A DNA stretch of 64,000 nucleotides from a virus. The stretch is from positions 8,392 to 72,391 of the IMG/VR virus record IMGVR_UViG_3300050196_000100, one strand, 5' to 3'. Position numbers and translations under genes: made by a program. The notes beneath the pieces are model-generated. The model was not told where the DNA came from. It did no database searches and worked only from the letters and a program-made list of their open reading frames with translations. This document shows, one piece after another, positions 8,764-54,799 of this stretch. How positions within the stretch are numbered: position 1 is the stretch's first letter; each line of letters begins with the position of its first letter.

Positions 8764-8793
8764 TTGACACAAGTTGTGTCCATGTGGTACTAT
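8764..8793 (+). promoter_or_regulatory. sigmaA promoter containing a GACACA-N3-TGTGTC dyad
   Basis: TTGACA-18-TACTAT with TG extension; dyad 8766-8780 overlaps the -35 and spacer. Confidence 0.75.
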
Positions 8794-9136
8794 TGGCACA
8801 TAGGAAATGCAAAGGAGGAAACTAAGGATGGTCATGGTAACTACAGAACGCAAGGGACTCATCGTGGATGTACGAGGAAGGTGCTTAGGATGGACTTTGT
8901 AATACAATGGGTCAAAGTATTAACAGCAATGATAGTCGTGGGGTCTTGTGCAGGAGTACTCCGTAGTATCATTGCTAATCACACTGTTAATACAAGGAGG
9001 AAACTAAGATGATACAATGTAAACCGTTCATATGCCAATGGTGTAACAGTAAGATTCATGGGACGCTCATAGGAAAGACCTGGGTATGCCGATGCAATGT
9101 CTGTCAGGATTCGTGGGAGGTCAAGGAGGAATTACA

Positions 9137-9457
9137 ATGAGTAACAAAGTATTTCAACATAGTCTACATAGGGAGCTATGGCAATGGCTCAGTGATAACC
9201 CAGAGAAGGACAAGTATCAATGGATACAGTGGCGTAGTAATGATGGTACAGTGGAAGATATTCCTGGAGATTGCTTTGCTTGTAACTATGGCAATGGATG
9301 CAGAGAATGCCCATTAGAACATACTCATGTAGAGTTAAGATGCCTTGGTGGTACATATGAACGATGGGAGCAGAATGAGGGAAATCCACAGGAACGCACA
9401 AGGTTAGCCCTAGTTATTCGAGATTTACCAGTGAAGGACGGAGTTGTCTGTGAATAG
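9137..9457 (+). CDS. Hypothetical Cys-rich phage protein
   Basis: RBS AAGGAGGA before ATG 9137; CFAC...CRECPL motif. Confidence 0.55.
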   Translation: MSNKVFQHSLHRELWQWLSDNPEKDKYQWIQWRSNDGTVEDIPGDCFACNYGNGCRECPLEHTHVELRCLGGTYERWEQNEGNPQERTRLALVIRDLPVKDGVVCE

Positions 9458-9617
9458 GCGAAGTATGCCTTGATTGGACACAAGTTGTGTCGGAGGAGGT
9501 AACAATGATGTTCTTGGATTACTTTAATAACCCAGAGGATTACATCGCACAATCAGTGGGTTAACTATGTCTACTTTGGACACAAAGTGTGTCAAGGGAT
9601 AAGGAGGAGGAATACAT

Positions 9618-10352
9618 ATGAATAACTTAATTAACATCAATGAAAATGGACAATGTACCGCTAGGGAGTTATATGAATTCTTAGAACTAGCACCAAGTCA
9701 ATTCGCAAGATGGTCTAAGTCAAACATAACAAGCAATGCTTTTGCTGAGGAAAACAAAGACTTCATACGGTTCGACATCTATGTCGAGGGTAACAAAACA
9801 TCTGACTATAAGCTATCTCCAGAATTCGCCAAGAAGATATGTATGACATCTGCGACTAACCGCGGTGAGCAAGCTAGGAATTACTTCATAGAAATCGAGA
9901 AGAAATACAATGGACAATCTCAAACTACCAAGGCACTACCACAGGTCGAGGTTGACCTCATAGCAGCTAAGTACGCCAGTGAAATACTTAGACCATCCGA
10001 GGCATCGAAGATTCGTATGTTAACCACAGTATGTCGTAATCACAATGTTAACACCAACTTCCTGCCAGCGTACACCGAGGAATCCTTGACCCGTAGTGCT
10101 ACGGAATTACTAGGCGAACATGGGAAGCCAATGTCAACCATAACTCTCAACAAGCGACTATTGAAGCTTGGAATACTCGAAGAACAACATCGAAACGGCA
10201 GAGGAAATACTGTTCATAAATTCAAGGCACTCACGGATGCAGGGTTAGCCTATGGTAAGAACATGGTATCCCCTCAGAATGAACGTGAGGTACAGGTGCA
10301 TTATTACCCTGAGAAGTTCAAGGAGTTACTGCGGATGGCGGTGGGTGCATAG
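9618..10352 (+). CDS. AntA/AntB-family antirepressor
   Basis: TARELYEFL...F.RW...E..DF...DY.LS...AKKICM...GEQARNYFIEIEK signature. Confidence 0.8.
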   Translation: MNNLININENGQCTARELYEFLELAPSQFARWSKSNITSNAFAEENKDFIRFDIYVEGNKTSDYKLSPEFAKKICMTSATNRGEQARNYFIEIEKKYNGQSQTTKALPQVEVDLIAAKYASEILRPSEASKIRMLTTVCRNHNVNTNFLPAYTEESLTRSATELLGEHGKPMSTITLNKRLLKLGILEEQHRNGRGNTVHKFKALTDAGLAYGKNMVSPQNEREVQVHYYPEKFKELLRMAVGA

Positions 10353-10403
10353 CTATGCCCAAGTTGGACACAAAGTGTGTCAAGGAAATAAGGAGGAATA
10401 TGC

Positions 10404-11045
10404 ATGGGGAAATTTATTGATTTAACAGGGAAGGTCTTTGGTAGATTAACAGTAATACGAAAGTCAAGCAGTAGTATTTATAGGAAAACAATATGGCAAT
10501 GCAAGTGTGAATGTGGTAAATACGCAGATGTCGTTGGTGAATCCCTAAAACAAGGACATACAAAGTCATGTGGATGTCTAGCTAGAGAAGCTTTAGTTAA
10601 ACGTAATACTATCCATGGCAATGCAACAAGAAGTCATAAGTCAAGAACATATGAAACATGGAGAGGTATGATAGCTCGCTGTGAAGATCCATTGAATAAA
10701 AGGTATAACAATTATCATAGCAAAGGAATCACAGTATGCGAAGAATGGCATAACTTCAATGTATTCTTAGAAAGCATGGGAGAAAGACCAGAGGGATTAA
10801 CATTGGACAGGAAAGATAATAGCAAAGGATATTACAAAGACAACTGTCGATGGGCAACTGTATACGAGCAGGCTAACAATAGGTCAAACAATAATCTACA
10901 GACATACAATGGCATAACGATGACAATGATGCAATGGTCTAAGTATCTTGCGATTGACAGGTCTACTATTGCTAGGCGTATGAAAGATGGATGGAGCTTT
11001 GAGTATACTGCGGAATACTATGAAAATAAGAAGGTGACTGCATGA
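10404..11045 (+). CDS. HNH homing endonuclease
   Basis: DLTGKVFGRLTV, W.CKCECG, SCGC, TLDRKDNSKGY.KDNCRWAT..EQANN; overlaps the dnaE start. Confidence 0.85.
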   Translation: MGKFIDLTGKVFGRLTVIRKSSSSIYRKTIWQCKCECGKYADVVGESLKQGHTKSCGCLAREALVKRNTIHGNATRSHKSRTYETWRGMIARCEDPLNKRYNNYHSKGITVCEEWHNFNVFLESMGERPEGLTLDRKDNSKGYYKDNCRWATVYEQANNRSNNNLQTYNGITMTMMQWSKYLAIDRSTIARRMKDGWSFEYTAEYYENKKVTA

Positions 11046-14264: not shown

Positions 14265-14603
14265 TTAGGCTCTGGAGTTTTCTCTGTCAGCTTTGAATTT
14301 AGCCAGTGTAACCATGACATACTCTGTACACTCTGCGTTCCGAAGTACATCTTGAAGATCACTTGGGAATCTTGCGATGATATCACTGTCAGTCACTAAG
14401 TATTTATCCATGTTCATCTTTAGGACTCTACCAAGTTTTTCAATGATATACTTTTCTGGTAGCTTATCATATCTCTCACCGAGCTCTATGAAGCTAAGGA
14501 GTGATCTGCTGATTCCTGTGTCATTGGCTACACTTTGTTGGCTTAGTTCCAACACAGCTCTCTTCTTTGCAATCTCTGTTCCAAACTGTTTAACAATAGT
14601 CAT
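14265..14603 (-). CDS. XRE-family HTH transcriptional regulator
   Basis: LSQQSVANDTGISRSLLSFIELG HTH; promoter TTGACA-17-TATATT at 14667-14639. Confidence 0.8.
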   Translation of the reverse strand: MTIVKQFGTEIAKKRAVLELSQQSVANDTGISRSLLSFIELGERYDKLPEKYIIEKLGRVLKMNMDKYLVTDSDIIARFPSDLQDVLRNAECTEYVMVTLAKFKADRENSRA

Positions 14604-14709
14604 CTTAGTGACCTCCTGTGCATTTATTCTGTGCCCTTAATATATCATAGCTACAATGTTGTGTCAATGGTAATCTTAAAATATTTATTAGAAAGGCAAG
14701 GTGTTGACA

Positions 14710-14898
14710 ATGGCATCACAGTTACTTACAATAAAACAAGCAATGGAATACCTAGACATATCTGAGAAGACAATATATAAGCTGGTGAAGGTCAAGGAAT
14801 TCCCTGCGGTGAAGATCATGGGTGAATGGCGCATAATCGTTGACAAGCTCGATAAGTACTATGAGGTGCTTATGAAAAACAAGGCTGACAATGTGTAA
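14710..14898 (+). CDS. xis: Excisionase/recombination directionality factor (HTH_17 type)
   Basis: LLTIKQAMEYLDISEKTIYKLVK..EFPAVKI.GEWRI; adjacent to attP and integrase. Confidence 0.75.
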   Translation: MASQLLTIKQAMEYLDISEKTIYKLVKVKEFPAVKIMGEWRIIVDKLDKYYEVLMKNKADNV

Positions 14899-15132
14899 GC
14901 ACTTATAAGCACCTAGAATGCCAATGGATGGCAGAGGAACCTTGATATACAAGGCATCTCCTTGTCATCCACAATAACCCCCTTAGTTATTACATTATAT
15001 TTCACAGAATGCCCACGAGTACAGTGATTACGCTGATTCGTGGGCATTCCTTTGTTTATTACATAGGCATCTTTCGATACAATAAAGCATCAAATAAGCA
15101 CCTTCGGGACACTATAAGCACTCGTTAAGCAC
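14896..15132. other. attP region with integrase arm-type repeats
   Basis: TAAGCAC at 14896, 14906, 15095, 15115, 15126 (plus AAAGCAT at 15084), in pairs 10-11 bp apart on both sides of a central region next to the int 3' end. Confidence 0.7.
15007..15049. terminator. Hairpin between the convergent xis and int genes
   Basis: GAATGCCCACGA / TCGTGGGCATTC 12-bp stem followed by a T-rich tract. Confidence 0.65.
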
Positions 15133-16242
15133 CAAGAGTTTGCCTATTTTATCCGCCGCTTCTCTGTCTTGATCGGGGATACTGTGGACGTACAATGCCA
15201 GCGTAATGTTCACCGAAGAATGCCCCAGTCTCTCACTGACCATCTTAATGTTGCAGCCCTCGGCAATCAGATGAGTAGCGTGGGTATGTCTTAGGTCATG
15301 AAAGCGGATCATATGAATTCCACAGTCATCCACGATTTCTTTGAACCTCGCTGAGACGGTGCATGGGTACAATGGCAAACCCTTGTTGCATTGGAATACC
15401 CAGTCACCTCTTTGTATCTCCCTCAGTTCATCAACGGTAGCCTTATCGACACTGATTTTGCGAAGGGACGAAGTTGACTTTGGCAGCCCTAGTTTCCTCT
15501 TAGCCGACAGGGAATGTGTCACTGTAACGCTGTCGTCACCTATATTCTTCCATCGAAGTGCAAGGAGTTCCCCTATCCTAAGCCCTGTAGCCAATGCAAG
15601 ACGTATGATGAGGTACATTGGTTGCATTGATGGCTTTGAGTCCCCTACGAGCCTCATAGAGTATTCTAAGACGACTTTGATATCTTCCTTGGTGAGAACA
15701 TTCATACTCCTGGTATTATTGCGGAGGGATGAGCTACGGGACACTGGGTTAACAGAGACAACACCCTCATCCATGGCGAGATCGAAGATACCACTAAGGA
15801 CTTGCCTATGCTTCTTCAATGTAGCCGATGATAGCTGGGATGCTTTGGATGTCAGGTAGTTGTTAATGATTGCCGTGGTGACCTTTTGCATCTTATGCTC
15901 TCCAAGTTCAGGCATGAGTTGCTTGGTACATATATGGGAGTACAAAGTATGCGAGGAATCCCTAATGTTGCTTTGTTTAGCCTTTAGCCAGCGAGATATG
16001 TACTCTGACATTCTACAGTTATTCCCAGCCACCAATGTACCCTTGGACTTCTGTGCCTTAAACTCGTTAAGCATCGACACTACTGCCTTCTGCGTATCTG
16101 CGGTGAAACTTTTGCGTCGCTGAGTACCACTGCCATCATCGCCAATTGTTATGACAGCTTTGTATTTACCATTGGCAAGACGTTGAATACTTCCGTCACC
16201 TTTGGGTCTGCGTTTCTTTGGTTTAGCCTTGGCTTCCTCCAT
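15112..16242 (-). CDS. int: Tyrosine integrase
   Basis: N-terminal arm-binding domain (RRPKGDGSIQ), TGLRIGELLALRW, RFHDLRHTHAT, RLGHS, catalytic Y (TLALYVH). Confidence 0.95.
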   Translation of the reverse strand: MEEAKAKPKKRRPKGDGSIQRLANGKYKAVITIGDDGSGTQRRKSFTADTQKAVVSMLNEFKAQKSKGTLVAGNNCRMSEYISRWLKAKQSNIRDSSHTLYSHICTKQLMPELGEHKMQKVTTAIINNYLTSKASQLSSATLKKHRQVLSGIFDLAMDEGVVSVNPVSRSSSLRNNTRSMNVLTKEDIKVVLEYSMRLVGDSKPSMQPMYLIIRLALATGLRIGELLALRWKNIGDDSVTVTHSLSAKRKLGLPKSTSSLRKISVDKATVDELREIQRGDWVFQCNKGLPLYPCTVSARFKEIVDDCGIHMIRFHDLRHTHATHLIAEGCNIKMVSERLGHSSVNITLALYVHSIPDQDREAADKIGKLLVLNECL

Positions 16243-16496: not shown

Positions 16497-16841
16497 TTAG
16501 GTCTTATCCTTTAGTTTCCTGACAATCTCTAAGACCTCATTGAGTTCTTCGTCAAGCATTGTGCCTCCACGCATTAACTTGGCGTAGACTTCAATGGGGT
16601 CATTATTATTCCCCAAGACTATCTCCTGGAATTCATCGTTACTATAGAAGAAGTATCCTGCTGGTAACTTTGCTAGATCGATGATATGCTGCATCTTATG
16701 GCTACTGAGCCACTTTGAATTATCCTTGCAATTCTCTATATTAGCAATGTAAGACTGCGTTGCATCCAATACAGTAGCAAAGGTCATTCTGTCCATCCCT
16801 AGCTTTTCCCTAGCTAACTTTACTCTTTCACCGTGTATCAT
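16497..16841 (-). CDS. CI-like XRE repressor
   Basis: RVKLAREKLGMDR..FA..L..TQSYIANIEN HTH; divergent from the early rightward promoters. Confidence 0.7.
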   Translation of the reverse strand: MIHGERVKLAREKLGMDRMTFATVLDATQSYIANIENCKDNSKWLSSHKMQHIIDLAKLPAGYFFYSNDEFQEIVLGNNNDPIEVYAKLMRGGTMLDEELNEVLEIVRKLKDKT

Positions 16842-17364: not shown

Positions 17365-17393
17365 TTGACACAATGTTTAACCTGTGATATACT
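17365..17393 (+). promoter_or_regulatory. sigmaA promoter
   Basis: TTGACA-17-TATACT with TG extension. Confidence 0.8.
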
Positions 17394-17527
17394 AAGGACA
17401 AGAGGTGAGGAACACAGTGAATAGAACAAGAGACAGGACATAGGACAGCCAGTGAGTTGTCCTTAGATTTTGACTTAGTTGGACACAAAGTGTGTCAAGG
17501 ATACATAGAATATTAGGAGGAATTACA

Positions 17528-17923
17528 ATGGAAGAACTAATAGGTCATAAGATTATCAAGATGTTCATTGATAAAGATTCGCAGGAATACTTAGTGTTCC
17601 AATGTAAACAGAGAAACTTTGTGTACTATGTAGATGGTGAGTGCTGCAGTGAATCATGGTTTGCCGATGTAGTTTCTATAGATGCATTGTTAGGTCACAC
17701 TGTAAACTCGGTAGACGAAGTTGATATGGGCGAAATCAATGATGATCGTGGTCGCCAAGAATGCGATGAAGCCTATGGGTATAAGCTTAAAACCACAGGT
17801 GGCTATGCAGACATTGTATTCAGAAATTCCAGCAATGGATACTATGGTGGATCACTGCGGTTAATAGGTGACATTGGTGAGCATATTAAGCTCATGGAAT
17901 TAACTGAGGATTACTCGGCATAA
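17528..17923 (+). CDS. Conserved-type phage hypothetical protein
   Basis: RBS AGGAGG; CCSESWF and FRNSSNGYYGG motifs. Confidence 0.55.
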   Translation: MEELIGHKIIKMFIDKDSQEYLVFQCKQRNFVYYVDGECCSESWFADVVSIDALLGHTVNSVDEVDMGEINDDRGRQECDEAYGYKLKTTGGYADIVFRNSSNGYYGGSLRLIGDIGEHIKLMELTEDYSA

Positions 17924-17969
17924 CTATGCTCAACATAGACACAACCTGTGTCAACAAAGGAGGAACACA

Positions 17970-18410
17970 ATGCTTTTCACACCGTACCACAAAGAACTCA
18001 TAGATAAACTACAGGAACTATGTCCCACAACATTCCCTCGTAAACCCTTCCCAAAAGTCCCTTTGGCATACAATAGTGTCAAGGCAGTTCAGCGAGTCCT
18101 CGATGTAAACTACACTACCGCAGACTTCCTACTACAGCATTGGTGTCACGGCAGTCGCTATGATTACGCATGTAGTACGCCAGGTGCACCAAGGTACTTC
18201 GTAGATGGCACTGTGCATGGTAAAGTTAGTTCTTCAGAATCTCAGTGGCATAAAGGTAAACTCGAAGAATACTACCGTAGCCGTGCCGTAGGACAAGCCA
18301 AGTATCACCAAGGTAGTCTTGTGGATTACTATGAGTCAAAGTTTCACAGTCAACCCACGGGAGTTATTAGATGGCTGAGGAATAAACTAGGAGGTGTACA
18401 ATGGAATTAA
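17970..18410 (+). CDS. ProQ/FinO-like RNA-binding domain protein
   Basis: L..L.P.TFP...KVPLA...W....RY......GAPRY.VDG...GKVS..E pattern follows the ProQ/FinO fold signature. Confidence 0.65.
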   Translation: MLFTPYHKELIDKLQELCPTTFPRKPFPKVPLAYNSVKAVQRVLDVNYTTADFLLQHWCHGSRYDYACSTPGAPRYFVDGTVHGKVSSSESQWHKGKLEEYYRSRAVGQAKYHQGSLVDYYESKFHSQPTGVIRWLRNKLGGVQWN

Positions 18411-19025
18411 AGGAGTCATTCAAGTTCAAACTCAGTCCATCCTTACAGAAACTATGTGACCCATGGTTTTACCTAGCCACTAAGGTGTCTAATGGTTATA
18501 TGGTCACATGGGCTAACCAAGGAGAATTACATAGCGAGCACTTTGGGTACTTTGAAGCTAAGTACGCATTGGAGAGCAAAGATTGGGAGGTTATACAATG
18601 AGAAACCCTGACCGCATCAATGAAGTCCTAGGACTCATAGGAGACATATGGAATTGTGGGCAACATAGTGACCTAAGATTCTTCCAGCTAGTCGGTGTAT
18701 TCCAAAGTTATGTCAATGGCACTAACAGGCAACCACACGATGCCGATGTATTCTATGTGGACGATGATGTTCTGCTGAAGGCACTTAGAAAGTACAAGGA
18801 GGGACTGTAATGAAATTATCTGTAGATGACAAAGTAACCATAGTGAACATTGATAGACAGAAATACCTCAGACATATGCTCGGACATACCATTGGCAAAC
18901 GGGGAATAGTCATAGTATCCGACGATCACCCTAAGCAGCCATATCAAGTCCACTTTGATGACGATGATGAATTCTGGTACTTCCCAGAAAACTTAGAATT
19001 AATCAAGGAGGAAACATATGAATAA
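18401..19025 (+). CDS. Three small hypothetical ORFs (18401-18601, 18598-18810, 18810-19025)
   Basis: Overlapping stop/start junctions with GGAG(G) RBSs. Confidence 0.55.
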
Positions 19026-19731
19026 CTTACTCACCATCAATGGTGTCAGAGGATACCTAGACTCCGAAGGTGTTGCTATGTTAAACCTAGAGGATACTGC
19101 GAGAGGTCTAGGGTTTACGCAGATTGCCAAAAGTGGCAACGAGTCAGTTCGATGGGAAAGAATCATAGGATACCTTGAATCCTTTGGCATCCCCACAAGT
19201 GGGGACGATGAATTACCTGAGTTTATTCCTGAGAATGTCTTCTATAGACTCGCCATGAAAGCTAAGAATCAAACTGCAGAAACCTTTCAAGTCAAGGTAT
19301 GCGATGAGATTCTTCCGTCCATCCGTAAGCATGGTGCATATATGACCGCAGACACTATCGAGAAGACTTTGACTGACCCAGACTTCATCATTGGTCTAGC
19401 TACGAGACTCAAGGACGAACAACGACTTCGTAGGGATGCTGAGAATACTGTGTCACTCCTGACTCACACTGGTAAGACTTGGACTTCTACAGAGCTAGCT
19501 AAGGAACTTGGATTCAAGAGTGCCATCGTGTTAAACAAGTGGCTCAATGATCATGGCATAATATTCAAGCAGAATGGAACATGGTTGCCCTATAGTAAAT
19601 ACAGTGACCTTGGATATGTCAGTATTAAACAAAGCATCCTAGATAATGGAATTGTCACCTACAATTCCAGATGGACTATGCTTGGCAGAGAATTTCTATT
19701 GAAGCTAAAGGATAAACTAGAGGTGGCATAG
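19018..19731 (+). CDS. BRO-N/KilA-C antirepressor
   Basis: LNLEDTARGLG, FIPENVFYRLAMKA..F...VCDEILPSIRKHGAYM, then PDFIIGLA and a KilA-C-like tail. Confidence 0.85.
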   Translation: MNNLLTINGVRGYLDSEGVAMLNLEDTARGLGFTQIAKSGNESVRWERIIGYLESFGIPTSGDDELPEFIPENVFYRLAMKAKNQTAETFQVKVCDEILPSIRKHGAYMTADTIEKTLTDPDFIIGLATRLKDEQRLRRDAENTVSLLTHTGKTWTSTELAKELGFKSAIVLNKWLNDHGIIFKQNGTWLPYSKYSDLGYVSIKQSILDNGIVTYNSRWTMLGREFLLKLKDKLEVA

Positions 19732-19775
19732 CTATGTCTAAGTTGGACACAGATTGTGTCAAGGAGGTGAAAACA

Positions 19776-20000
19776 ATGAGAGCGAAGTTCAGCAATGATT
19801 ACGTGGTTGCCCTTGCAACCTATAAACCAGTGAATAAACTTGTGGTAGCCGTGAAGTTACCCACAGGAGTCACAGAGATCATTATAAATACTGAAGCCAT
19901 AGAATCCAAAGTTAACTACTACCTAAATGCCTATGACGATCATATGTGTCTAAAGACTAATCCTAATGTCAAAGTATTATCATGGATGTTCGTGGGATAA
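19776..20000 (+). CDS. Hypothetical protein
   Basis: RBS AAGGAGGTGA immediately after motif copy 19746. Confidence 0.55.
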   Translation: MRAKFSNDYVVALATYKPVNKLVVAVKLPTGVTEIIINTEAIESKVNYYLNAYDDHMCLKTNPNVKVLSWMFVG

Positions 20001-20101
20001 CTATGTCCAACTTTGACACAGGATGTGTCAAAGGAGTAACAGCGACTACCAGGCATACTAGGGAGTCCTAGTGTGACCACGTAAACGAAGGAGACTAACA
20101 T

Positions 20102-20707
20102 ATGGGTAACTTATATCTAAGCAATGCGGTAACAGCACAAGGTACAGCTAAATTCTTCAAAGTAAATTCTAAGGTTGATGTCTATGAAGGCAAAGAGACT
20201 GGTTATGTAGCTAATGTATACTTCAGTGAAGCAGTGACTAAAACCATGGTGGCAGACATTAGTAAAGCCATTGCGGATGCTAAGGAATCTAAAGAATTCA
20301 CTAATGCAAAGACAGGTAAACCTGTGAACTGGAGAACAAACCCAAGAGTACCTTATAAAACTGATGATGACGGCAAGGTGTTCTTTGTATTCAAAAAGTC
20401 TCACTTGGATAAAGATGGTAACCGTCAGTACATCCCAATGTTTGACAGCCAGAATAAACCTATGAAAAATGATGTAACCATTGGCAATGATTCTGTAGTT
20501 CAAATCTCATATACACCCAATGTCTACCATAAGAATGAGGATGTCAATGGAGTTAAGTTCTTCATCAATGCAATTCGTGTGATTAAACTTGAGACGTTTG
20601 AAGGGAATCCTTTTGGTGAAGCTGTTATTGGTGGTTATGTTGCGCAAGAGGATACTCCATTTGGCAATGAGGTAGCTGAAGAGTCCAATGACAACATCTG
20701 CTTCTAA
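20102..20707 (+). CDS. ssb: Single-stranded DNA-binding protein (T7 gp2.5-like)
   Basis: TAQGTAKFFKV, FKKS, FDSQNKP...IGNDSVVQI, VKFFINAIRVIKL; acidic tail ending in Phe. Confidence 0.75.
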   Translation: MGNLYLSNAVTAQGTAKFFKVNSKVDVYEGKETGYVANVYFSEAVTKTMVADISKAIADAKESKEFTNAKTGKPVNWRTNPRVPYKTDDDGKVFFVFKKSHLDKDGNRQYIPMFDSQNKPMKNDVTIGNDSVVQISYTPNVYHKNEDVNGVKFFINAIRVIKLETFEGNPFGEAVIGGYVAQEDTPFGNEVAEESNDNICF

Positions 20708-20716
20708 GGGATAACT

Positions 20717-22246
20717 ATGACCAACATGGACACAACCTGTGTCACAACAATGGGTACTGAGGAGTCATCGAACTCCCTTGCCCACCAAGGAGGAAACAAT
20801 GGAGACAATGTATCTAAGTATCACTTTAGAATTACTATGTATGGCGGTGGTGACCAATATAGCAAGCCGTGGTATTTTATGAAACCATCATGGCTGAACG
20901 TTGGAGGTCACAGAGTAAACCTCCCTGACACCATGGACTTCATCGATATGCCATATTTAACACCGTTTGGAACTGTGGCTATACATTTGCATTACCGGGG
21001 AGAACAAAGGGCGCCACGGGCGTGTCAGGAGGTGTACGATGGAAACATGCGCTAACTGTGACAATTACAAAGAATGCCATGATGGTGAGGATTATTCTAC
21101 GGACTGCGATGGTGGATGGGTGCTGCGTAAGGATATTGAGGAATTGCAAGGCAAGCTAAAGAAAGCTTTGGACGCATTGAGACACATGAGACATAGTGAT
21201 CTTGCTCATGCTGTTCTTTGGGACAACTATGATACTCATAGAAAATGGTATTCAGTGCATATGCAGGACTACATCGATGGAATATTGGAGGAATTACGAT
21301 GATACTTATGTTAGACAATGGAACTGTGGTTGTACAATGTGGTCATGGAACAGTCGGAGTCGGTGCAGGGACACTAAAGAGCGGCGAGGTTGCCATTGGC
21401 GCAAGAGAGTTAGAACATAGATGTAACGTGGGTGACAGCGTTCCCAATGGTGATGACCAAGTGATCGTTATGTTTGCCAATGTTGAGTCTGTGGATGTCT
21501 GGATTAGGGCATTGGAAGCTGCGAAGGAGTTGTTGGTGCGTGGATAATTCTAAGGAAGTTCAATATGTAACTGAGAGATTCCTATACTACCTAAAGAACA
21601 TTGGGTCGATCATGAGTGAACTATGTCAACAGAAGTATGCCATTGAGCAGGAGCTTAGTGATCTGAGCCACGAGTTGGAGTTGTCCCAGTTGAATGCCTC
21701 AGAAATGGCTAAGATTGCCAGTGAGCAACGTAGACTACTTCGTGAGCGTCGTGTCTGCAAAGATGAACTATTGTTACTACAGTCATTCAAAGATTTCCAG
21801 AGTTCCCATGATACATTAAAGTATGACTTAGTTAAAACAGTGAGAGAAAACAATGAGGTCGTAGGGATGCTAAGGACTCGGCGGTACAAGGCTAAGGTTC
21901 GTGGGAATCTGCGGTGTTGTTGCGTGGGATAGCTATGGGTTTGATGGACACAAAGTGTGTCGAGGAGGTAACAATGGAAATTCGTATGGAAATTTATGAT
22001 GGTGACCTAGTATACATCATAAATAAACGCCAGATCAAAACAGAGTATGACAAAGAAGTCCTTAGTAAAGCCATAAATGCCATGTGTCACTTGCATTGTT
22101 TTGACTATCGCATGACCACAGAGGAGATTACAGAAGTCATAGCGGATAACAAAGGGCTATATGTGGCTTTCGTATCAATCTCAGGGATACTATATACATG
22201 TGATTATTCAAAGAAGCCAATGAAGCTCAAAGATATAGCTTGGTAA
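20717..22246 (+). CDS. Cluster of small hypothetical ORFs
   Basis: Tightly packed co-directional ORFs (e.g. 20967-21302, 21245-21547, 21474-21932, 21974-22246); exact starts uncertain. Confidence 0.45.
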
Positions 22247-22257
22247 GGAGGCAATCA

Positions 22258-42795: not shown

Positions 42796-43510
42796 TAAAA
42801 AAATAGTACGATGCTTAGTATGTGAAAAAGAGGAGTATGTTTGCCCAAGCAGATTAGCGTCATATAAAACATGTTCCAAAGAATGTTCCTCAACATACAG
42901 GATATTACAAAATCAACAAAATAGGCAACTTATAAAATGTGCAATATGCGATAAGATCCTTAAAATAGGCAATCAAAGGATATCTGATAGTAAAACAAAA
43001 GAATTCTGCTGTAGCTATGAATGCTCATCAATTCACCGCAAAACAACTATGGCTGGAACTAACAACCATCAATACGGATTAAAAGGATCAAACAACTCAT
43101 CATTCAAAGGTGATACTAGAATAAATATACATGGATATGAATTAACCTATTCTCCAAACCATCCGTTTAGAGATTGTGATGACAAAGTTAGAACACATCG
43201 ATTAGTCGCCGAGGAGTATTTGCTAACTAATGATAATTCCGTAGAAGTCAATAGAGTTAAATATCTAAATCCCAAACTTGAAGTTCATCATATTGACGAA
43301 GACAAGCTTAATAATAACTATAATAATCTTATAATACTAACTAAGTCAGAACATATGAGGTTACATGGCAAACAAAGGAATTTACAGAGAGGCGAAGATG
43401 GTCGTTATATTGCCCAAGGAATCTTCCAGAAGTACCTAGTTGCCGATGGAGACAATGTAACCACAGTTAGACGGGGTGGCATCGGTAGCACTAACTATGT
43501 CCAACGGTGA
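42785..43510 (+). CDS. HNH homing endonuclease carrying a dUTPase C-terminal peptide
   Basis: Zn-finger Cys pairs, HRLVAE, EVHHIDEDKLNN..NNL..LTKSEHMRLH; ends IAQGIFQKYLVADGDNVTTVRRGGIGST. Confidence 0.85.
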   Translation: MANNKKIVRCLVCEKEEYVCPSRLASYKTCSKECSSTYRILQNQQNRQLIKCAICDKILKIGNQRISDSKTKEFCCSYECSSIHRKTTMAGTNNHQYGLKGSNNSSFKGDTRINIHGYELTYSPNHPFRDCDDKVRTHRLVAEEYLLTNDNSVEVNRVKYLNPKLEVHHIDEDKLNNNYNNLIILTKSEHMRLHGKQRNLQRGEDGRYIAQGIFQKYLVADGDNVTTVRRGGIGSTNYVQR

Positions 43511-43871
43511 CACAGCTTGTGTCCATAAGGAGGAATTCAATGCTAGAACTTAGTACCTACAGCTACTACATATTTCGCAATGCTGACCAATGGTTACGCA
43601 TAGGATTCCACCAAGGCGAAACCTCAACTCACCTAGCATACATAGAGGAACGTGGTGTCGAAGCACTGTTCCTTGGTACTCTTAGACTCCCATTAAAGAT
43701 TGACATTGACACTTTGACAGGCATTGGCTCAAAGAAGTACCTAGACACCACTGTAGTCACCTGTAAAGGCATCGGAATCATGATGACCAAGGCTGACAAG
43801 GGAAAACCCTTCCTAGTACTTCAGCAGGAATACTTTATGAATTCCAAGAGAAGTCAGGAGGAATACATAGA

Positions 43872-44510
43872 ATGCAAAGGTTTATAAGCAAAATCGAGGA
43901 TGAACTATGCACCCTACAGTCCATTATGGATGGTGACCCAACAATGAATGCCTGTGACATCTTGGAAGCAAGGGAGGATACAAGGAAGATTCTGAGACTT
44001 CTCAATGAAGTCTTAGTTTCCTCTAGATTAGATAGGAATGACCGAAGGATATTCTATATGTACGTCCTTGGGTACTCTGAGAATGCCATAGCAAGGAAGG
44101 TTGGCATGGGTCAACCTGGGATACACAAAAGGATTACCAAGTTACATTCTAAGATTATGCCATGTGGGAACATAAGAACCCTTAGTGACCTTTGGGAGAT
44201 TCTGCAACACCCGCAGTCAACTAAGGAAGCCAGTGTACCCGAAGTTAAGCTCAATCTATTCTTTGACTCTGCGGTTAAATCATGGGACAAAAGCGGGTGG
44301 AATCATAGTCGATCTAGGGGAGAGAACAAAAGAAAACCAAAAGAGTACCTAAGTACCAAGCCAAAAGGAGATTACATATGGGAATCAAAGGCAGTCTGCA
44401 AGGTGCCAGAGTACTTCCATGAGTCCTTTGGAGACGATAGTACCCGATGTGGGTACTGTGGCATTCAGTGTTCCAGACGAAAGGTGAATTCCTATGACAA
44501 ACCAAAGTGA
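43872..44510 (+). CDS. Sigma70 region-4-like HTH protein (phage sigma factor or activator)
   Basis: LDRNDRRIFYMYVLGYSENAIARKVGMGQPGIHKRI. Confidence 0.55.
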   Translation: MQRFISKIEDELCTLQSIMDGDPTMNACDILEAREDTRKILRLLNEVLVSSRLDRNDRRIFYMYVLGYSENAIARKVGMGQPGIHKRITKLHSKIMPCGNIRTLSDLWEILQHPQSTKEASVPEVKLNLFFDSAVKSWDKSGWNHSRSRGENKRKPKEYLSTKPKGDYIWESKAVCKVPEYFHESFGDDSTRCGYCGIQCSRRKVNSYDKPK

Positions 44511-45920: not shown

Positions 45921-46151
45921 CTATGGGTTCCCTTTGTTATCGTCTGTTATCCCTAGTAAATAGTCCACAGATACATCAAAGTATTTTGCAATGGCTACTA
46001 GGGTTTCTATGGAAGGCAAATGTACACCTCTAGAAAATTGGCTAATTGATACTCTATTGACCCCCACGGCATTTGCCAAGGATTGCTTTGATATATTATG
46101 CTTATTTATTAATAAATTAAGTCTCTCAATAAATACATCTTTGTTGAACAT
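45921..46151 (-). CDS. XRE-family HTH protein
   Basis: ISKQSLANAVGVNRVSISQF..G...PS.ETLVAIA.YFDVSVDYLLG. Confidence 0.85.
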   Translation of the reverse strand: MFNKDVFIERLNLLINKHNISKQSLANAVGVNRVSISQFSRGVHLPSIETLVAIAKYFDVSVDYLLGITDDNKGNP

Positions 46152-47505: not shown

Positions 47506-50500
47506 TCATACCCACACCTCCCTAGCGCGTCGTAGGACGTACTTTAGATCAAACACAGGGTAAGTACTGTGTTTACTACAGAGTTCCCTCACCAGTCCCT
47601 CAGCGTCCTTAGTCGGCAACGGCATTCCATGAGTCACTAAATAATTCCATAATAACATTGCAAATTCTCTGATAATCAACTGTTTCATACTTTGCCTCCT
47701 CTAATATTCTAAGACTATGCAGGGTCTCAAACGTGGGTAACCTGTGCTGAATCCTGTGTTTCAATTCCATGTTCATTCGTTGCGTTAGTTGGGCATTCGA
47801 TAGTTTCACTTTGTTTATCCTCCAATTTTCTAAGGTACTTTTCCATTGTTGGGCAAGGGATACCGACGGACTTAGCGTTGGCTATACATCGTTTCAAATC
47901 GTTGATACTCATAGGATCGTCCTCCTTAATTCTAAGATTCCTTTGTCAACTAAGACCTTCTTTGCTGTTCTGCCGAAGCCAGCGGGTTGTCCTTCGATAC
48001 GAGGTGGGAGTCCTTGCTCCTCTGCGCGGGCTACGGCATACTTTGACCATACCCAGATATAGCCTTGAGGTGCAATGGTGGTCATACGGACACCTCCTCC
48101 AGTTTGTCAATGACTGCTAGAAGTTGACCTACGACTTCCGTAGATAGGATATTGTTATCGATGATGCTCATTATTTACTTCGCCTCCTTAGTTTTGACAT
48201 TAGAATTACAATGTGTTCTTTAAGTTTCATTGGCTGACCTCCAATGCTACAATGTATTTCGCTGGTATCTTCATTCTACCAAGGGAATCCGCTTCCCATC
48301 CGCAGAACGCATAGAATTTGCCTTGCTTTTCGTAGATTGTACCTCTGGAAATTCCGTGATACCCTTTAAGTGTTTTATGTGCATCAGTGATAATCGTTGG
48401 TTTGTATCCATTACTTACAAAGACATCCTGCGCTAATCCTTCGCACTTTACTGGGATAGTGACAATGTTTTCTTCAAAGTATTTTACTGCTTCATCTAAG
48501 GAACATCCATTGATTGAAATGTTTCTCAGTAAACCCTGGAATCCTCCGCTACCATAAAATGCTTCTTTTGCTAATTCTTTGTTTATCATTGTATTCACTG
48601 CCTTCCTTCTAATTTCTCGATGATAAGGAATAACTAGTTATGACTATTTATACCAACGTATTTTCATAGACTACACGTTGGTATACTCCAGGCTTCAGAG
48701 GTTACCGTGGACAAGGGTTGTGTCAAGGCTGGACGTAGTTAGTCCTTTAATTCTTCGCAGGACACTGCACGAGCCATATTATCGCCATCAATTCCGAAGT
48801 TGAACCATTTGCCTACATAGTATTTCCTAGCACCTTCCAAGGTAGCATTAATAGGTGTGGTTATGGTGTTGCCATCGGCGAACGTGACTTTCACTGTGAT
48901 CATTCTGCGACCTCCTTAGTAGCTTCTTTGAGGTATCCTATAGTGTGGTCAATGTTTTGTTTCAGGACTTCGTAGTCCTTTCTGCGTAGCTTCTTTAGTT
49001 CTACCAGTGTCAATAGTTGAGCCTCTAAGTATTCTAAATTATCCATGGCAATTACAATGCGCGTAGTATCCATGTTATTTCCCTGCCTTTCTTAGTATAA
49101 ATTCCATGTTATTCATAAGATTGTACATAGCATTCTTTTGCATAATTCTGCGAAGGTCATTGTATACGTTGATGACTGTGGATTCGTCTATGATTGGTTC
49201 ATTGGATTGCAGGGTAGTAATAAGGTCTTCATAGGTTATGCCTTGGAAAATATCATCATGGATGGAAGGTTTGTCTTTGGTGTTCATAGTTATTTCACCG
49301 ACCTTTCATAGTTCACTGGGATAACTACGACTCTAGGTTTATCCTTGAGTCTCTGTTCACTGGCATGGCATTTTATAGTAATACTTTGATCATCCATAGA
49401 CGTTACACCGATGACAGAGTATTTATCTTTGCAGTGTTCACGGTAGGATAAGTCAATTACTTTGTATGCTGAGATTCGTGCCAATGTTCTAGCAGGGTTT
49501 ACAACATGGTTATTCATAAGGTTATAGCCTTGACTGTCTGCGTGTACTCTGTAGCCTTCGAAGTCGTGTAGGACTTCCATGGAGTCGAAGGAACAATTTA
49601 GAGCTTTGTTTACCCATGCTACGATGTTTTCTTTTGTATAGTCGATGGATTTCATAGAGGTTTTATCATATCCTAGTCTTGATTTATTGCAATCATCGTT
49701 TTTACCATTAATGTCTGTAATTTCAAAGCAGAAGTCAATGAATAATACGATATCAAGGACTTCACCTGAGAATTTGCCATAGGATTTATATTGAGGTTTG
49801 CCATTTCCTTGTAATTCTAAGTAAATCATTTTGCCTTCATTGTTTACAAAGGCTGTCCGTATGCGACAATTGCTTACATTGGTTGCCTTGGAAGAGTCTG
49901 CGTCAGACCATCCTGCGCCTTCGAAGTATAATATGTTGTTATTCATAATTAACACCTGTCCTTCCCTATATATTCTACGGTACCCACTATGTTTCCGTTG
50001 ATGTCTCTGATTATACCGAATGCATGGCACTCCTCGATATCATCTGCCATTTGTCGAAGTATCCTTGCAATTTCATAGTCCCTTTGGTCACCATCGAATG
50101 CGCTGTTACCTGTGTCAATCTTAATTTTAATCATAGTCCTTCTCCTTATGCCTGGGATTCTAACGACCTCCACAACACTACCCTTGCTACACTTTGTGTC
50201 ACATTTGCCCATAGTTAACCCTTGACTACCATCCACACCTGCCAGCCTTTGAAGTCCTTTGCTTTGCCGTGGAATACTGCGTATTTAATCATAGTTTAAC
50301 CTCCATACGACCACCTTTATATACCATAACCTTACCATAGGATTTGCAGCCTATTAAGATATAAACCTCGGGACATTTAGTTTCATTAGTGACATATACG
50401 CGCCCATGCTCTAATTGTCGTAACAAGTGTTTGCCATGTTTCATAGCTTCTAACTTTGTGTTATGCTCATGTATTTCTAAGTTTAATGCAATGTTTGACT

Positions 50501-52629
50501 TATGGTCTATGATTGTTTTATACATTGTTAACACTCCTTTATTCCTTATCATCCTTGACGATTAGTCTCATGTTCCATTTCGACACACTTTGTGTCCGTG
50601 TTGAACATAGTTGTACCATAGCCACCTGAGACACCTCCTGAGCCTTCCCTACGACGCTGGAGGAGCTAGGGTTTAATCTAAGAGTCTAACATATGATACA
50701 TGCTCAGAGTCCCAAGGGTAATTCTCAGGATCTTTAGGTTCACCATCGATGTCTGTAATGCCCTCTGTATCAAAGAGGTACATAATTAAACATTTGCTTC
50801 CATTGGGTAATTTGGATTCCTGTTGCCATTCCTCGGCATAGCCATGGTTAGACGATCCTTCTAGGAGTCTAGAGGTAGGTTCTGCGTTGCCAATGGCACT
50901 TCCAAAGATAACCTCTGATTCTACTGTTTCCAAGGTTTTACCATGGCTGTATTGTTTTACATTTAATTCCATTGTTATTACCTCCTAATATTCTTCATCC
51001 CTAGCATACTATACAATTCACAGAATTTCAATGACCTCTACAGGACGCTAGGGAGTGCCTAGTGCCTGCCTCCTTGGGTGTGGCATAGTATCGCCTCCTA
51101 GTATTCGTTGGACTGTCTACGGACTACCTGCGCTCACCTCATGGATGACACCGCCTTTCTGAGTATTGTAGTTACTTCAGTGTTACCTCTTGACAATATC
51201 CAGGCATTGCAAGGTAGTACTCACCGCCGTTTATAGCTGTCCAGTGTTCAGCGATGCATTCTTCATCGTTATCCCATTGCTCCATTAGTGAACTATAATC
51301 ATCTTCGAGTAATCCAGTATATCCCTTGTCCTTGCAATAGACTCCTAGCAATTCCAAGGCATCCTGTAGATTGCTGGCATATACTGTAAACTTATGTTCT
51401 CCATAGCTACCCAATGTGAGCAGGAAGGCATTGCTGCCTGTGTACTCCTTGTCATCGTGGTTGACAACTTCGGATGCAAGGACAAATTCGTCGTGCTCTT
51501 CTTCGATTACTTCCCAGGTTTTAGTTGTTACGCGATGTTCTACATCAGATTTTGAATAATTTACAAAGTCACCACCTTCCATAAATAATTTATATTTACC
51601 ATTGATGATATTAACATCGTATGTAGTACCATTAAAATTCTTAATTTTCATTATGATACCTCCTTCTATTATTTAGATTCCTCGTTCTAACACTGACTTC
51701 TTAAAAACACACCATTTAATGGCAGGGTTTATTTCCTCAAATCCTTTCCTTGCATACTCTACGCTAGTCGCTGACATAAATTGCACATTCAATGTAGTTT
51801 GTGTTTTGTTTTCGTTGAGATTTCCGATGAATTCGTTTGAATCAAATCCAACGTACATTTCACGTTTTGCCATTGTAATTCCTCCTAGTATTCTTATTAT
51901 CCTTCAGACCCTCCACCGACTACCGTTGCTCCTGCCAGGCATTCACAAGGAATAGTTGGTGTTGGTCTGTGAGTCCGTGCCGTGGACTAGACGAAGTGTT
52001 GCATGGATGATACTAGGTTAACATTGTAACCAGTGTATCATAGTTTCCTGCGACTCTTAGAATTAACTAAGAGTTTCGACTGCTAACTAAGCAAGTCATC
52101 GTCAGGCAGGGTTATTAGCTTTGATTACTTTAGATTTTAGATATGGTAGTGCATTGATATTCTTTGATGGTTTAACCATTGATATCACCTCGCTTTCGCC
52201 GTATGGCTCATATTCTATGATTAGCCTTGACTTGCATCAAGTTTCCAGTGTCGCCATCGTGGAGGCTCATAGTTGACACCGTGGGAGGGCGATGGTTACG
52301 CCCTTAGTTACTTAGCATTACATCGTCAGGCAGGGTTATTGTTCTTCTCCATATCTCACAGGATTTTTCCAGTTACAAGGTATATTCGATAATTCCATAG
52401 TTTTCAACTTTGCGATTCTATTTAATATCGCAGAACCTACATTCGATAGACTAAGTAGATAATCAAGCTCTTGCTGATTTTTAAAGGACTCTTGAGTTTC
52501 CCACATTGCATAATATTTGATTCCGTTACTATCTACACCAGTAGCACTATATCTAAAATAGCAATCATCGTTATGTTTAGTTGGAGTATTGAATGTTACA
52601 GTATGATAGTTTATTTCTAGTTTAATCAT
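47506..52629 (-). CDS. Leftward arm of ~15 small hypothetical genes (early/host-takeover type)
   Basis: e.g. 48227-48598, 49075-49287, 49290-49946, 50289-50552, 50673-50972, 51172-51651, 51673-51873, 52336-52629, mostly with GGAGG RBSs; driven by promoters at 52695 and 52791. Confidence 0.55.
52047..52110 (-). ncRNA. Type I hammerhead ribozyme
   Basis: Minus strand: CCTGC-CTGACGA-T-GAC(T)TGC-TTAGTTA-GCAGTC-GAAA-CTCTTAG-TTAATT-CTAAGAG-TC-GCAGG; all core nucleotides and stems I-III present; GUC cleavage site between 52052 and 52051. Confidence 0.8.
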
Positions 52630-52915: not shown

Positions 52916-53184
52916 CTGTTGTTACATTGTCAGACAATGATCTAGTTTAGATAACTAGGTCTAAGCATAGAATAAACTATGTAATATAATTTCACATACT
53001 ATATACCATGCTTACAGGGACATAATTTGTCCCACATCGGACCGAAGTAAGCACCTCTGGCAACACTGGTAAACATTGACATAACCTCGCATATCCTTTG
53101 ACACTTCATCAAACTAAAGGGTGGGTTATGATCACTGGGCTGCTCAAAGGTACTAACACCAGGCTCACCTTTGAGTCAACTCTA

Positions 53185-53213
53185 ACTTCCGATAACCTTC
53201 TATTATCGGAAGT
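53185..53213. other. Perfect 11-7-11 inverted repeat, dif-like
   Basis: ACTTCCGATAA-CCTTCTA-TTATCGGAAGT. Confidence 0.6.
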
Positions 53214-53651
53214 ATAAATCAAGCATAGCAAGGGCTGACAGGACACACATAGTCAGCATAGGCTCACAATGCTTCGAGGTCACAGTGGGCTTCTGAGGCT
53301 GTCTAGTGAGGGTACGGTGATATTTCTATAACCAATCTGGGAGACCTTACGGGCAAATCGGCGGCTATTGCACTCGGCTAATCTGCGTCCCAAACCAATG
53401 AAATTCTCCGCATAATCTCCGTAATATCCTCCGCATGACGATGTTATACCTAGGTGATACTTGTTATATCTTAGATCATTATAAACTTCATATAACCCAT
53501 AGAATACATAACGCCACAGGCAATAACTCAGATAAACAATAGGTGTTACATAGGGTACGGTGATAAATTAGGTATAAACCCTTGATATTACTGCGTTTAA
53601 TAATGATTCATATAATATTTCATATGTTACAAAGTTTATCTACTATAACCC

Positions 53652-53680
53652 TTGACACAACTTTGTGCCTGTGGTATACT
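53652..53680 (+). promoter_or_regulatory. Rightward sigmaA promoter with an imperfect motif dyad
   Basis: TTGACA-17-TATACT with TG extension; GACACA-ACT-TTGTGC. Confidence 0.8.
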
Positions 53681-53978
53681 TTAGTCACGGCACAGGTTGA
53701 ACTGTGGAATAACTATGAAGTAAGTGGACACAAAGAGTGTCAAGGAGGAGAACAATGCGCTTCTACGACAAAGTAATGCTAGCCCTTGCATCCAATGTCA
53801 GCAAAGCATCTATAACACTGCCGAGGGTAACACCAAGTATGCTTGGGTTTCTGATGGTGGTCAGTGTATTCGAGGTGGTCTGGGAATGGACGAAGGGATA
53901 GCTGTGAGTTCGTTGGACACAGGTTGTGTCAATGGAATACAGAGTGATTACCTAAAGTAATCGAAGGAGGAAACAATA

Positions 53979-54740
53979 ATGTTCAATGACCGCAAAGTTG
54001 TATTCAAGGCTCTCGTAGGTAGTCACAATTACAATCTCAATGATGAATCCAGTGACAAAGACTGGAAATACTTCGTACTCCCAACATTCGATGATCTCTA
54101 TGGTGGTACTAGATTTAGCGCATCTAAAGTAGGTACAGAGGAAGACTATGATGTCCACGATATCCGTAAACTCACTGACCTGCTCTGGAAAGCCAATGTT
54201 AATTTCTTGGAGGTACTGTATTCCAATGATGTCCAAGAATTCTGGAAGCTAACTGAGCAAGGTGTGCCTAGAAGATTAGCAGTGGGTTCCGCGCATATCC
54301 TTAGAGAGATCTTCGACATCCGTGACTCCATCGTAACAATGAATCTCCCATATTTATACTCTGCCTGCAAGGGAATGTTCCATGAGAAGATGAAGAGGAT
54401 TCAAAGTCCAACATCGGGTACGCAGGAACTTATGGATAAGTATGGGTATGACACTAAGCAAGCATTGCATGCATGGAGAATCTTGGACTTCATTGTACGC
54501 TTCCATGAGTTTGATTGGGATTTCAAAACGGCTATGACATATAACGAAACCGAGCGTCAAAGAATGCTAATGATTAAGCATGGACACTTTGCCTTCGATG
54601 AGTTTAAAGCATTGGCATACGATGCGTACAATGACACATTCCTTGGACTCGAAGATATCTACAAATCCAAAGTACCTAACCTTGAAACCAAAGCTAAACT
54701 AGAGGACTTGGTGAAATCTATGGTTCACAGGAATCTATAG
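53979..54740 (+). CDS. Pol-beta superfamily nucleotidyltransferase (RlaP/Nuc-transf-like)
   Basis: VGSHNYNLN...SDKD, K.N.NFLE.L, YDTKQA.HA.R. Confidence 0.75.
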   Translation: MFNDRKVVFKALVGSHNYNLNDESSDKDWKYFVLPTFDDLYGGTRFSASKVGTEEDYDVHDIRKLTDLLWKANVNFLEVLYSNDVQEFWKLTEQGVPRRLAVGSAHILREIFDIRDSIVTMNLPYLYSACKGMFHEKMKRIQSPTSGTQELMDKYGYDTKQALHAWRILDFIVRFHEFDWDFKTAMTYNETERQRMLMIKHGHFAFDEFKALAYDAYNDTFLGLEDIYKSKVPNLETKAKLEDLVKSMVHRNL

Positions 54741-54799
54741 GATAACTATTCCTAACTTGGACACAGATTGTGTCACGAAGAAATACAAGGAGTGATTCA

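Follow-up and report, generated by a model that had tools for sequence, protein, structure and literature searches.

Dispersed repeats at phage gene junctions recur in the literature, among them the stoperators of Cluster A mycobacteriophages, the Cluster O repeats, the SAS/ESAS elements of Cluster K and SPBRE of Bacillus phage SPbeta, and a binder is known only for the L5-type and SPbeta systems. Here we analyze a 38-bp two-part motif that is repeated along 64,000 nucleotides (the window, taken as a whole) of an uncultured virus, IMG/VR record IMGVR_UViG_3300050196_000100. The window comprises bases 8392–72391 of an 80,215-bp record rated 100% complete, which was assembled from a leaf-litter metagenome; positions below are those of the window unless given as genome positions. 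The motif joins a 5' box to a 15-bp inverted repeat, GACACA-N3-TGTGTC (the dyad). Our favored reading, to which we give about even chances, is that its copies are DNA sites of a phage-encoded dimeric regulator, with operators in promoters and polar, stoperator-like checkpoints at gene junctions.

By analogy, the system would work most like the L5-type stoperators. In Cluster A phages (L5 gp71, Bxb1, Trixie; PMC6550527), 20–30 sites are dispersed over a temperate genome, oriented with transcription and mostly placed at gene junctions, the same site sits within a promoter as an operator, and the consensus varies between related lineages, including at syntenic sites. The dispersal, orientation, junction placement and varying consensus have counterparts here, and the dyad lies over the -35/spacer of predicted promoters. 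The sites themselves differ: those of Cluster A are 13–14 bp long, show no dyad symmetry and bind a monomer non-cooperatively (PMC6550527), whereas the core here is a perfect 6-3-6 inverted repeat, and the asymmetric site with a monomeric repressor that defines the Cluster A system is not shared by this motif. Our motif owes its polarity to a conserved box that stands apart from the core, 9 nt upstream, the host is Firmicutes-like rather than actinobacterial, and the structural genes carry no copies. The original prediction for this stretch had proposed a genome-wide regulatory system with L5 stoperators as the closest precedent, which is supported by the dyads in promoters, the 23 polar dyads at junctions and the lineage-changing core described below.

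Other described repeats match in part. The Cluster O mycobacteriophages carry a 17-bp dyad, TGTTCGG-N3-CCGAACA, with 34 copies in Corndog (PMC4351075). It shares with our motif the invariant arms, a free 3-bp center, more than 20 copies of which many are intergenic and some lie in gene ends, and a predicted dimeric DNA-binding protein. Unlike ours, the Cluster O repeats have no meaningful orientation, lie mostly off promoters and occur in phages that are not evidently temperate; here the 5' box imposes a strict orientation, and there are 26 sites rather than more than 30, three of them in promoters. The SAS/ESAS elements of Cluster K (PMC3203893) are asymmetric, one-orientation repeats just upstream of the starts of genes of different families, a subset of them with inverted repeats, and their consensus differs by subcluster. 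However, SAS includes the ribosome-binding site and lies 3–8 bp from the start, compared with 12 to 130 nt here, and ESAS consists of imperfect 17-mers with a variable spacer, in contrast to the rigid internal spacing of our motif. SPBRE, which was identified by ChAP-seq as the site of the lysogeny repressor MrpR of SPbeta (PMC10516654), resembles our dyad as a dispersed 15-bp element in a temperate phage of Firmicutes type. The SPBRE sites lie in approximately ten promoter regions and off operon-internal junctions, whereas most copies here are off promoters, and MrpR has a tyrosine-recombinase fold, whereas the sole recombinase-fold protein seen here is the integrase. Finally, the PeSL cassettes of T4-type phages (PMC2839356, PMC4122927) are composite promoter-related repeats with a stem-loop at variable-gene junctions, where they mark modular exchange. 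They are functional early promoter/terminator composites of virulent myoviruses, unlike our copies, which contain no sigmaA promoter and have a lineage-specific core. The novelty of our motif lies in its two-part design and in the clean exchange of the core at a syntenic junction, by which two usually confounded layers are separated: a family-wide box, and a 15-nt core that is swapped between close relatives and present in promoters.

The dyad has 20 exact matches in the window and none in 100 dinucleotide shuffles. Counting junction copies with up to two mismatches plus flanks, aligned on the dyad, we found 23 in register, 20 on the plus strand and three on the minus strand (48710, 50186 and 50582). 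Two promoter-type copies in the window (8766 and 31818) complete the 25 that had been counted originally, and a scan of the whole genome added a third at genome position 75753, outside the window, for a total of 26 sites (23 junction and 3 promoter) in the 80-kb genome. The junction consensus reads gGnaTAACTATG-nCCAAsTTG-GACACA-ann-TGTGTC-AAgGAGG, without an indel in any of the 23 copies. As claimed, a triplet stands at a fixed offset 12 nt before GAC; it is ATG in 19 copies and GTG, ATT, ACG or TTG in the remainder. The arms of the dyad are invariant and its 3-nt center is free. The asymmetry of the site stems from the separate 5' box and not from the core, and the center of the box lies approximately 21.5 bp, or two helical turns, upstream of the dyad center. 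The nine nucleotides in between, previously taken for a free spacer, are constrained to nCCAAsTTG and, together with the box, form the evolutionarily conserved part of the motif, the dyad being the variable part. No box without a dyad was found in the genome. Sub-families of copies have a common N9 and loop, including the 22-mer identical in four copies and the 33-mer identical in two that had been noted before; the four alternating half-sites proposed for the best copies can be read in only a few and not in the rest.

Placement follows the genes closely. All 23 junction copies, including the three in the leftward arm, are oriented with the local gene direction, far from the random orientation that would speak against a system of this kind. 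Minus-strand copies are confined to the leftward arm as predicted, although the two listed there (48710 and 50582) have a third companion at 50186. The whole-genome scan placed junction copies only in the early/middle regions and none in the structural/late region, in line with their claimed absence from the late regions. In five copies with certainty (10367, 17938, 19746, 20015 and 21947), and in up to seven, the upstream gene stops at the motif's own TAA/TAG. Five upstream genes terminate just ahead of the motif, two end within it (32541 and 43509), and three read through the dyad, which confirms that it is written over coding 3' ends: the C5-methyltransferase at 29044, the exonuclease at 34692 and the gene 37284–37865, whose end is met at 37836. 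The next start codon is 12 to 130 nt from the end of the dyad. A Shine-Dalgarno sequence lies within 11 nt of the dyad in 13 of the 23 copies; the statement that the motif usually ends at the next ribosome-binding site holds for these 13 and not for the others.

The dyad is also part of promoters, all of which are predictions from a sequence scan. A single paralogous family, ATAAACCC-TTGACACAA ... TRTG-TATACT, accounts for most of the strongest sigmaA-type promoters, with members at window positions 8764, 14667 (minus strand), 16926, 17365, 31816, 52695 (minus), 52791 (minus) and 53652 and at genome position 75751, and the extended -35 of this family, TTGACACA, is the left arm of the dyad. In three members a complete dyad covers the -35/spacer: 8764–8793 (plus strand; TTGACA-18-TACTAT, with TG), directly behind a terminator at 8709–8746; 31816–31844 (plus strand; TTGACA-17-TATACT, with TG); and genome 75751, behind a terminator-like hairpin. 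The promoter at 53652–53680 (plus strand) carries a variant dyad (GACACAACTTTGTGCC), and promoters 16926 and 17365, beside the cI-like gene, have the left half only. Promoter 17365 is followed after approximately 100 nt by junction copy 17482, and promoter 53652 after approximately 60 nt by junction copy 53727. Given that 8764 and 31816 contain the dyad while 17365 and 53652 soon meet a copy, most strong rightward promoters contain or meet the dyad early. About 50 nt past promoter 17365, a terminator-like hairpin with a T-rich tail (17442–17463) precedes copy 17482, and the arrangement at 17365–17500 resembles a regulated leader. A moron-like unit in the late region (genome 75700–76830; L032:3310–4439) includes the promoter at genome 75751; the unit is composed of the terminator-like hairpin, the dyad-bearing promoter and a stand-alone gene, whose product has 338 aa and a CapR homology domain (PF21817).

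Outside this phage lineage the composite pattern is not found as a repeated element. We searched databases for CTATG-N9-dyad and obtained no match in IMG/VR, 15 contigs in JGI metagenomes, all unrelated, and eight matches, all single, in 185,579 bacterial species genomes. The pattern is private to this phage lineage, and the similar frequency in host chromosomes or shuffles that would count against a phage system is seen neither in these genomes nor in the 100 shuffled sequences. One apparent relative, L015, has a single full-looking copy and was rejected, as it has no second copy and no homology to the phage. A locus search via ProQ found no relative with the motif, and PolIII relatives in IMG/VR, at most 34% identical, were excluded from the analysis. 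Separately, an unrelated metagenome contig (Ga0209545_100831, L014, near 3295–3339) has GGACACAGCTTGTGTC twice, 9 nt apart, so the dyad is used by another element as well. At strain level, relatives in two other leaf-litter runs keep both the dyad and the TAACTATG box, and the listed differences affect N9 positions 1–2 and the flanks. Joints and loose ends in the read alignments were considered as recombinants and rejected, since they are due to cross-alignment of motif copies elsewhere in the genome.

A different picture was obtained with relatives of the same gene order, found via the polymerase: L001/L002, L077 (polymerase 78% identical) and L006/L007/L008 (polymerase 55–59% identical). The 5' part, (C/G)TATGCC(C)A, is retained in L001, L077, L007 and L008, whereas the core, GACACA-N3-TGTGTC in our phage, is TTGTCAAC in all eight copies listed for L001 (mostly followed by nnnGnGAAAC), TAAGTyAAAATTATCAAAG in L077, cacTTGACAAAsGTAAAG in L008 and GAAACATATAA in L007, where it is also found beside the -35 of two promoters. 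Because the 5' part is retained while the cores differ, the sequences identify the box/N9 as the conserved module and the dyad as the fast-evolving one. The swap is clearest at the syntenic junction behind the orthologous antirepressor gene, where upstream flank and ribosome-binding site are both preserved in L001, with TCAACTGTGCGAAAC as its 15-nt core instead of GACACAGATTGTGTC; nucleotide homology to L001 ends at 19745, 1 base before the dyad. Lineage-specific cores would be the pattern expected when a trans-acting specificity factor and all of its sites change together, and heteroimmune Cluster A phages do have distinct stoperator consensus sequences, each with its cognate repressor (PMC6550527). 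Three further observations concern these relatives. In L006 (16190–16260, 17520–17600 and 19090–19170), a different junction repeat of approximately 70 nt (...ACACnnTAAAAACGCTTAGAnnnAGCGTGAGACAnCTTAGAA) replaces the box-plus-core motif. In L008, that lineage's own junction motif also stands before an HNH-AP2 gene located upstream of PolIII. L001 retains only a remnant of the integrase, its 69-aa N-terminus (L001:1966–2175), and its lineage lacks the second helix-turn-helix (HTH) gene and Xis; judging from these losses, the L001 lineage may be a non-integrating derivative.

The anatomy, polarity, distribution, promoter use, rarity elsewhere and lineage-specific core swapping of the motif are direct observations. 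The invariant arms with a free center, the use in promoters, the lineage-specific cores and the absence of support at the RNA level argue together for a dimeric DNA-binding regulator over an RNA structure. In the favored mechanism, the dyad, extended to TGGACACA on one side, would be the binding site of a phage-encoded dimeric regulator whose specificity evolves fast. Over the -35/spacer of the three strong sigmaA-type promoters, it would serve as an operator. At the 23 junctions, where the dyad is coupled to the conserved one-way box (G)GnATAACTATG-nCCAA, the bound regulator would gate transcription passing or restarting there, preferably as a polar roadblock that silences read-through of the early/middle genes in the manner of L5 stoperators. 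The block would owe its direction dependence to the box, which would engage RNA polymerase or else a second, conserved factor. The AACTATG of the box is similar to the -16/-10 region of promoters of this phage (TACTAT with TRTG), so the box may engage RNA polymerase; it would be either a pause site ahead of the roadblock or the only element of an internal promoter that depends on a factor. Among the four options put forward originally (a repressor array, phage-sigma promoters with a 5' hairpin, RNA processing/ProQ sites and recombination sites), the repressor array gives the best fit. If this is true, one protein would silence or time approximately 46 kb of early/middle genes in a Firmicutes-type temperate phage, and the system would show how immunity specificity can be re-tuned genome-wide and how control is extended to newly acquired genes. 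With a short element whose parts are open to synthesis, the model is testable in Bacillus/Paenibacillus reporters even though the phage is uncultured.

Several points weigh against this mechanism. A symmetric dimer leaves the one-way box at a fixed 9-nt distance and the CCAA in N9 unexplained. In the degenerate copies, loss of the right arm (seven mismatches) far exceeds loss of the left arm (one mismatch), which is unexpected for a two-fold site. The left arm is also contained in the extended -35 of most of the strongest promoters, so the presence of the dyad in promoters would in part reflect shared descent. The Shine-Dalgarno sequence that abuts 13 of the 23 copies would also be explained by a translational role. 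The control region of the cI-like gene is without the dyad and has direct repeats of its own, TGCAACT twice, and no candidate protein could be tied to the motif as its binder. The TGCAACT repeats, at 16883 and 16896, lie between the cI-like gene and promoter 16926, where L001 (2780–2830) has GATTCACT twice; both are likely to be lineage-specific operators of the cI-like repressor itself.

Three proteins were considered as putative binders: the cI-like XRE protein (16497–16841, minus strand) beside the integrase, a second HTH regulator (14265–14603, minus strand) with its own strong promoter, and a GerE/LuxR or sigma-r4-like HTH protein (43872–44510, plus strand). The recognition helix of the cI-like protein differs in every lineage compared (TQSYIAN, TQQNIAN and SEGYIRN in the three), and the second HTH protein is also highly diverged; since all diverged proteins differ between lineages, neither of the two is singled out. 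The third, formerly described as sigma-like, has 212 amino acids and no Pfam or PHROG hit, and it resembles GerE/LuxR or sigma-70 region 4 HTH proteins, its nearest Atlas clusters, by Atlas language-model features only. Its gene closes the rightward early/middle operon, a placement like that of a late regulator. A further HTH protein, at 45921–46151, is a fourth candidate. Adjacency did not reveal a binder either: the first genes behind the dyad promoters encode small peptides or proteins that gave no hit in Pfam or PHROG, and none of the leftward-arm genes between the promoters and the first copy has a Pfam hit. L078, which was found via its cI-like homologue, was rejected as a relative; it is an unrelated element without such motifs.

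It is possible, at a low probability, that the junction element is a modular cassette "plug", in which a family-wide box is joined at a fixed helical phase to an exchangeable 15-nt core that is read by a fast-evolving, immunity-type regulator. If so, the box would engage the machinery of transcription, where it would serve as a pause site or a factor-dependent start, a gene landing behind a copy would fall at once under the lysogeny/timing control of the resident phage, and lineages would re-tune all copies in step when the regulator changes. Such an element would be a two-component, direction-sensing silencer, unlike the monomeric stoperators.

The main rival to a regulator-bound roadblock is that the junction copies are repressible internal promoters, with the box GGnATAACTATG as a lone -10-type element at which host RNA polymerase is redirected by a phage factor. 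T4 late promoters, which are read via gp55, are a precedent. In this layout GyCCAA would form the discriminator/start site, and the dyad, at approximately +5 to +19, would be an operator and/or a 5'-terminal stabilizing hairpin before the Shine-Dalgarno sequence. We regard internal promoters as unlikely, even though they would account for the CCAA, the strict polarity, the start distance of 12–130 nt, the copy behind hairpin 17442–17463 and the copies 5' of lineage-specific or mobile genes, HNH genes among them. What the lineages have in common is the box, as expected of a site for a conserved factor, and its AACTAT differs at 1 base from TACTAT, the -10 of promoters 8764 and 16926, with A2 and T6 kept. 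However, upstream of the box no -35 and no TG extension is conserved, no box stands apart from a dyad, and 23 internal promoters would be unusual in a temperate siphovirus-type genome. A sigmaA promoter within the junction copies was rejected on either strand, as neither passes the promoter scan, which lists none of these copies: the sense strand reads TTGGACA without a -10, and on the antisense strand, 13 of the 19 plus-strand copies with an exact dyad show a perfect TTGACA, with the best -10-like hexamer, CATAGT, 20 nt off. The phage factor is likewise out of sight. T7-type RNA polymerase, ArpU and sigma r2/r4 domains were not found in the complete genome, where profile searches with E up to 1 gave no match to PF04542, PF08281, PF00940 or TIGR01637, although a very divergent factor could escape them and the PF00940 search was weak, its control matching in no control genome. 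No NusG-paralogue domain was found either. The earlier option of phage-sigma promoters with a 5' hairpin thus survives only without a visible factor.

A role in the mRNA, as a nut-like box-spacer-hairpin, a processing site with a 5' stabilizer hairpin or a translational operator, possibly read by a protein such as the ProQ/FinO-like one, is distinctly unlikely. The lambda nut site consists of boxA, a spacer and boxB, occurs as two sites per phage, has a conserved boxB loop and acts in RNA. Its linear layout, in which a conserved box and a spacer of 8–9 nt lead on the sense strand to a phage-specific hairpin of 15 nt, recurs in our motif, whose 8 + 9 + 15 nt geometry resembles nutL, but here there are 23 copies, the loop is free, and the relatives' cores form no hairpins. 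The sense-strand placement of every copy and the Shine-Dalgarno sequence within 11 nt of the hairpin in 13 of 23 would suit such a role. So would the ProQ/FinO-domain gene behind copy 17938, which is only 50% identical in L001, a lineage with a different core, and the two changes in copy 27673, both of which preserve pairing via G-U. In contrast, RNAalifold on 22 copies gave no compensatory change (none of five predicted pairs doubly changed) and a consensus of only the 5-bp core helix at -5.5 kcal/mol, and five of the seven right-arm changes disrupt pairing. Minimum-energy folds vary by copy: five copies folded singly gave five different structures with z-scores of -0.04 to -2.45, and several leave the hairpin unused. 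Against Rfam, the whole window gave no match at the gathering score, and its densest 6 kb, 17400–23300, gave none even with E up to 10. No comparable hairpin can form from the L001, L007 or L077 core, and the dyad also lies in promoter DNA upstream of the transcription start. Protein-read hairpins usually carry conserved loops, whereas the loop here is free. A conserved RNA structure was rejected on the absent covariation, the inconsistent single folds and the missing Rfam match, and the RNA processing/ProQ option is weakened accordingly. None of the RNA runs looked through contains the phage. A leader peptide or upstream open reading frame starting from the motif ATG was also rejected: the mini-ORFs have 2 to 200 codons with no consistent frame or stop, and are in frame with the next gene in six of 23 cases, which is the chance level. 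The conservation in N9 has no 3-periodicity, and the upstream genes that read through the motif use all three frames.

It is very unlikely that the copies are homology linkers or scars of recombination or mobile cassettes without a regulatory role, kept alike by gene conversion in the manner of T4-type PeSL cassettes (PMC2839356, PMC4122927), since gene conversion alone fails to explain invariant arms beside a free center, the same core genome-wide with another in relatives and the use of the dyad in promoters are left unexplained, 23 direct repeats are a deletion hazard that calls for a compensating benefit, and homology boundaries fall at gene ends anyway, although the sub-families with their identical 22- to 33-mers, the break in L001 homology exactly at the dyad, the often lineage-specific genes behind copies in the comparison with L001 and the four of seven L001 copies within approximately 45 nt of a homology boundary would fit. 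The recombination sites proposed originally would be better seen as places where exchange, with its one breakpoint exactly at the dyad, is a by-product, as with PeSLs (PMC4122927).

The individual junction copies are distributed as follows. On the plus strand, 9456–9491 has a weak 5' box, GTATG, and a 19-codon open reading frame next; 9558–9593 lies ahead of an antirepressor-like gene (9618–10352); and 10346–10381, whose TAG is the upstream stop, is followed by an HNH endonuclease gene (10404–11045). The copy at 17461–17496, with a degenerate 5' box, lies just past promoter 17365 and its hairpin, and 17917–17952, whose TAA is the upstream stop, precedes the ProQ/FinO-like gene. The copy at the L001 homology break behind the antirepressor gene is 19725–19760. 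From 19994–20029, the next start codon is 72 nt past the dyad; 20708–20743 contains the same 33-mer as 35332–35367 (copy 35353); the TAG of 21926–21961 is the upstream stop, and the gene behind it is missing from L001; and a further copy lies at 23132–23167. The degenerate copy at 27652–27687 (GACACG...TGTGTT) stands 130 nt upstream of the C5-methyltransferase start, and 29023–29058 overlies the 3' end of the same gene, with the HNH-AP2 gene (29075–29713) next. An upstream gene ends inside 32520–32555 (at 32541). The copy at 34671–34706, with right arm CGTGTC, overlies the 3' end of the 5'-3' exonuclease gene, 37815–37850 overlies that of gene 37284–37865, and 43488–43523 has its 5' box within the 3' end of an HNH gene (42785–43510). 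Farther right, 53706–53741, with right arm AGTGTC, lies approximately 25 nt past the predicted start of promoter 53652, and GTG and ATT take the place of ATG in 53895–53930 and 54739–54774, respectively. On the minus strand, in the leftward arm, 48710–48745 (right arm CTTGTC) and 50186–50221 (right arm TGTAGC) are degenerate and are accompanied by 50582–50617.

The phage is temperate, as judged from its tyrosine integrase gene (15112–16242, minus strand) and an HTH_17 excisionase (Xis) gene (14701–14898). It also encodes a PolIII alpha subunit, a DnaG-DnaB fusion, ribonucleotide reductase, a C5-methyltransferase, a ligase, a 5'-3' exonuclease, several antirepressors, a ProQ/FinO-domain protein and several HTH regulators. 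At least five HNH endonuclease genes are present (10404–11045, 26648–27262, 29075–29713, 33300–33932 and 42785–43510), one of them with an AP2 domain (29075–29713); two follow a junction copy immediately, and one extends into a copy. A phage nucleotide database gave no match to this phage, the nearest named homologues of an antirepressor are from Paenibacillus, and the host is Firmicutes-like. Behind promoter 8764 (window 8800–9010), two tiny open reading frames of 24 and 40 codons, the second hydrophobic, lie ahead of the first annotated gene.

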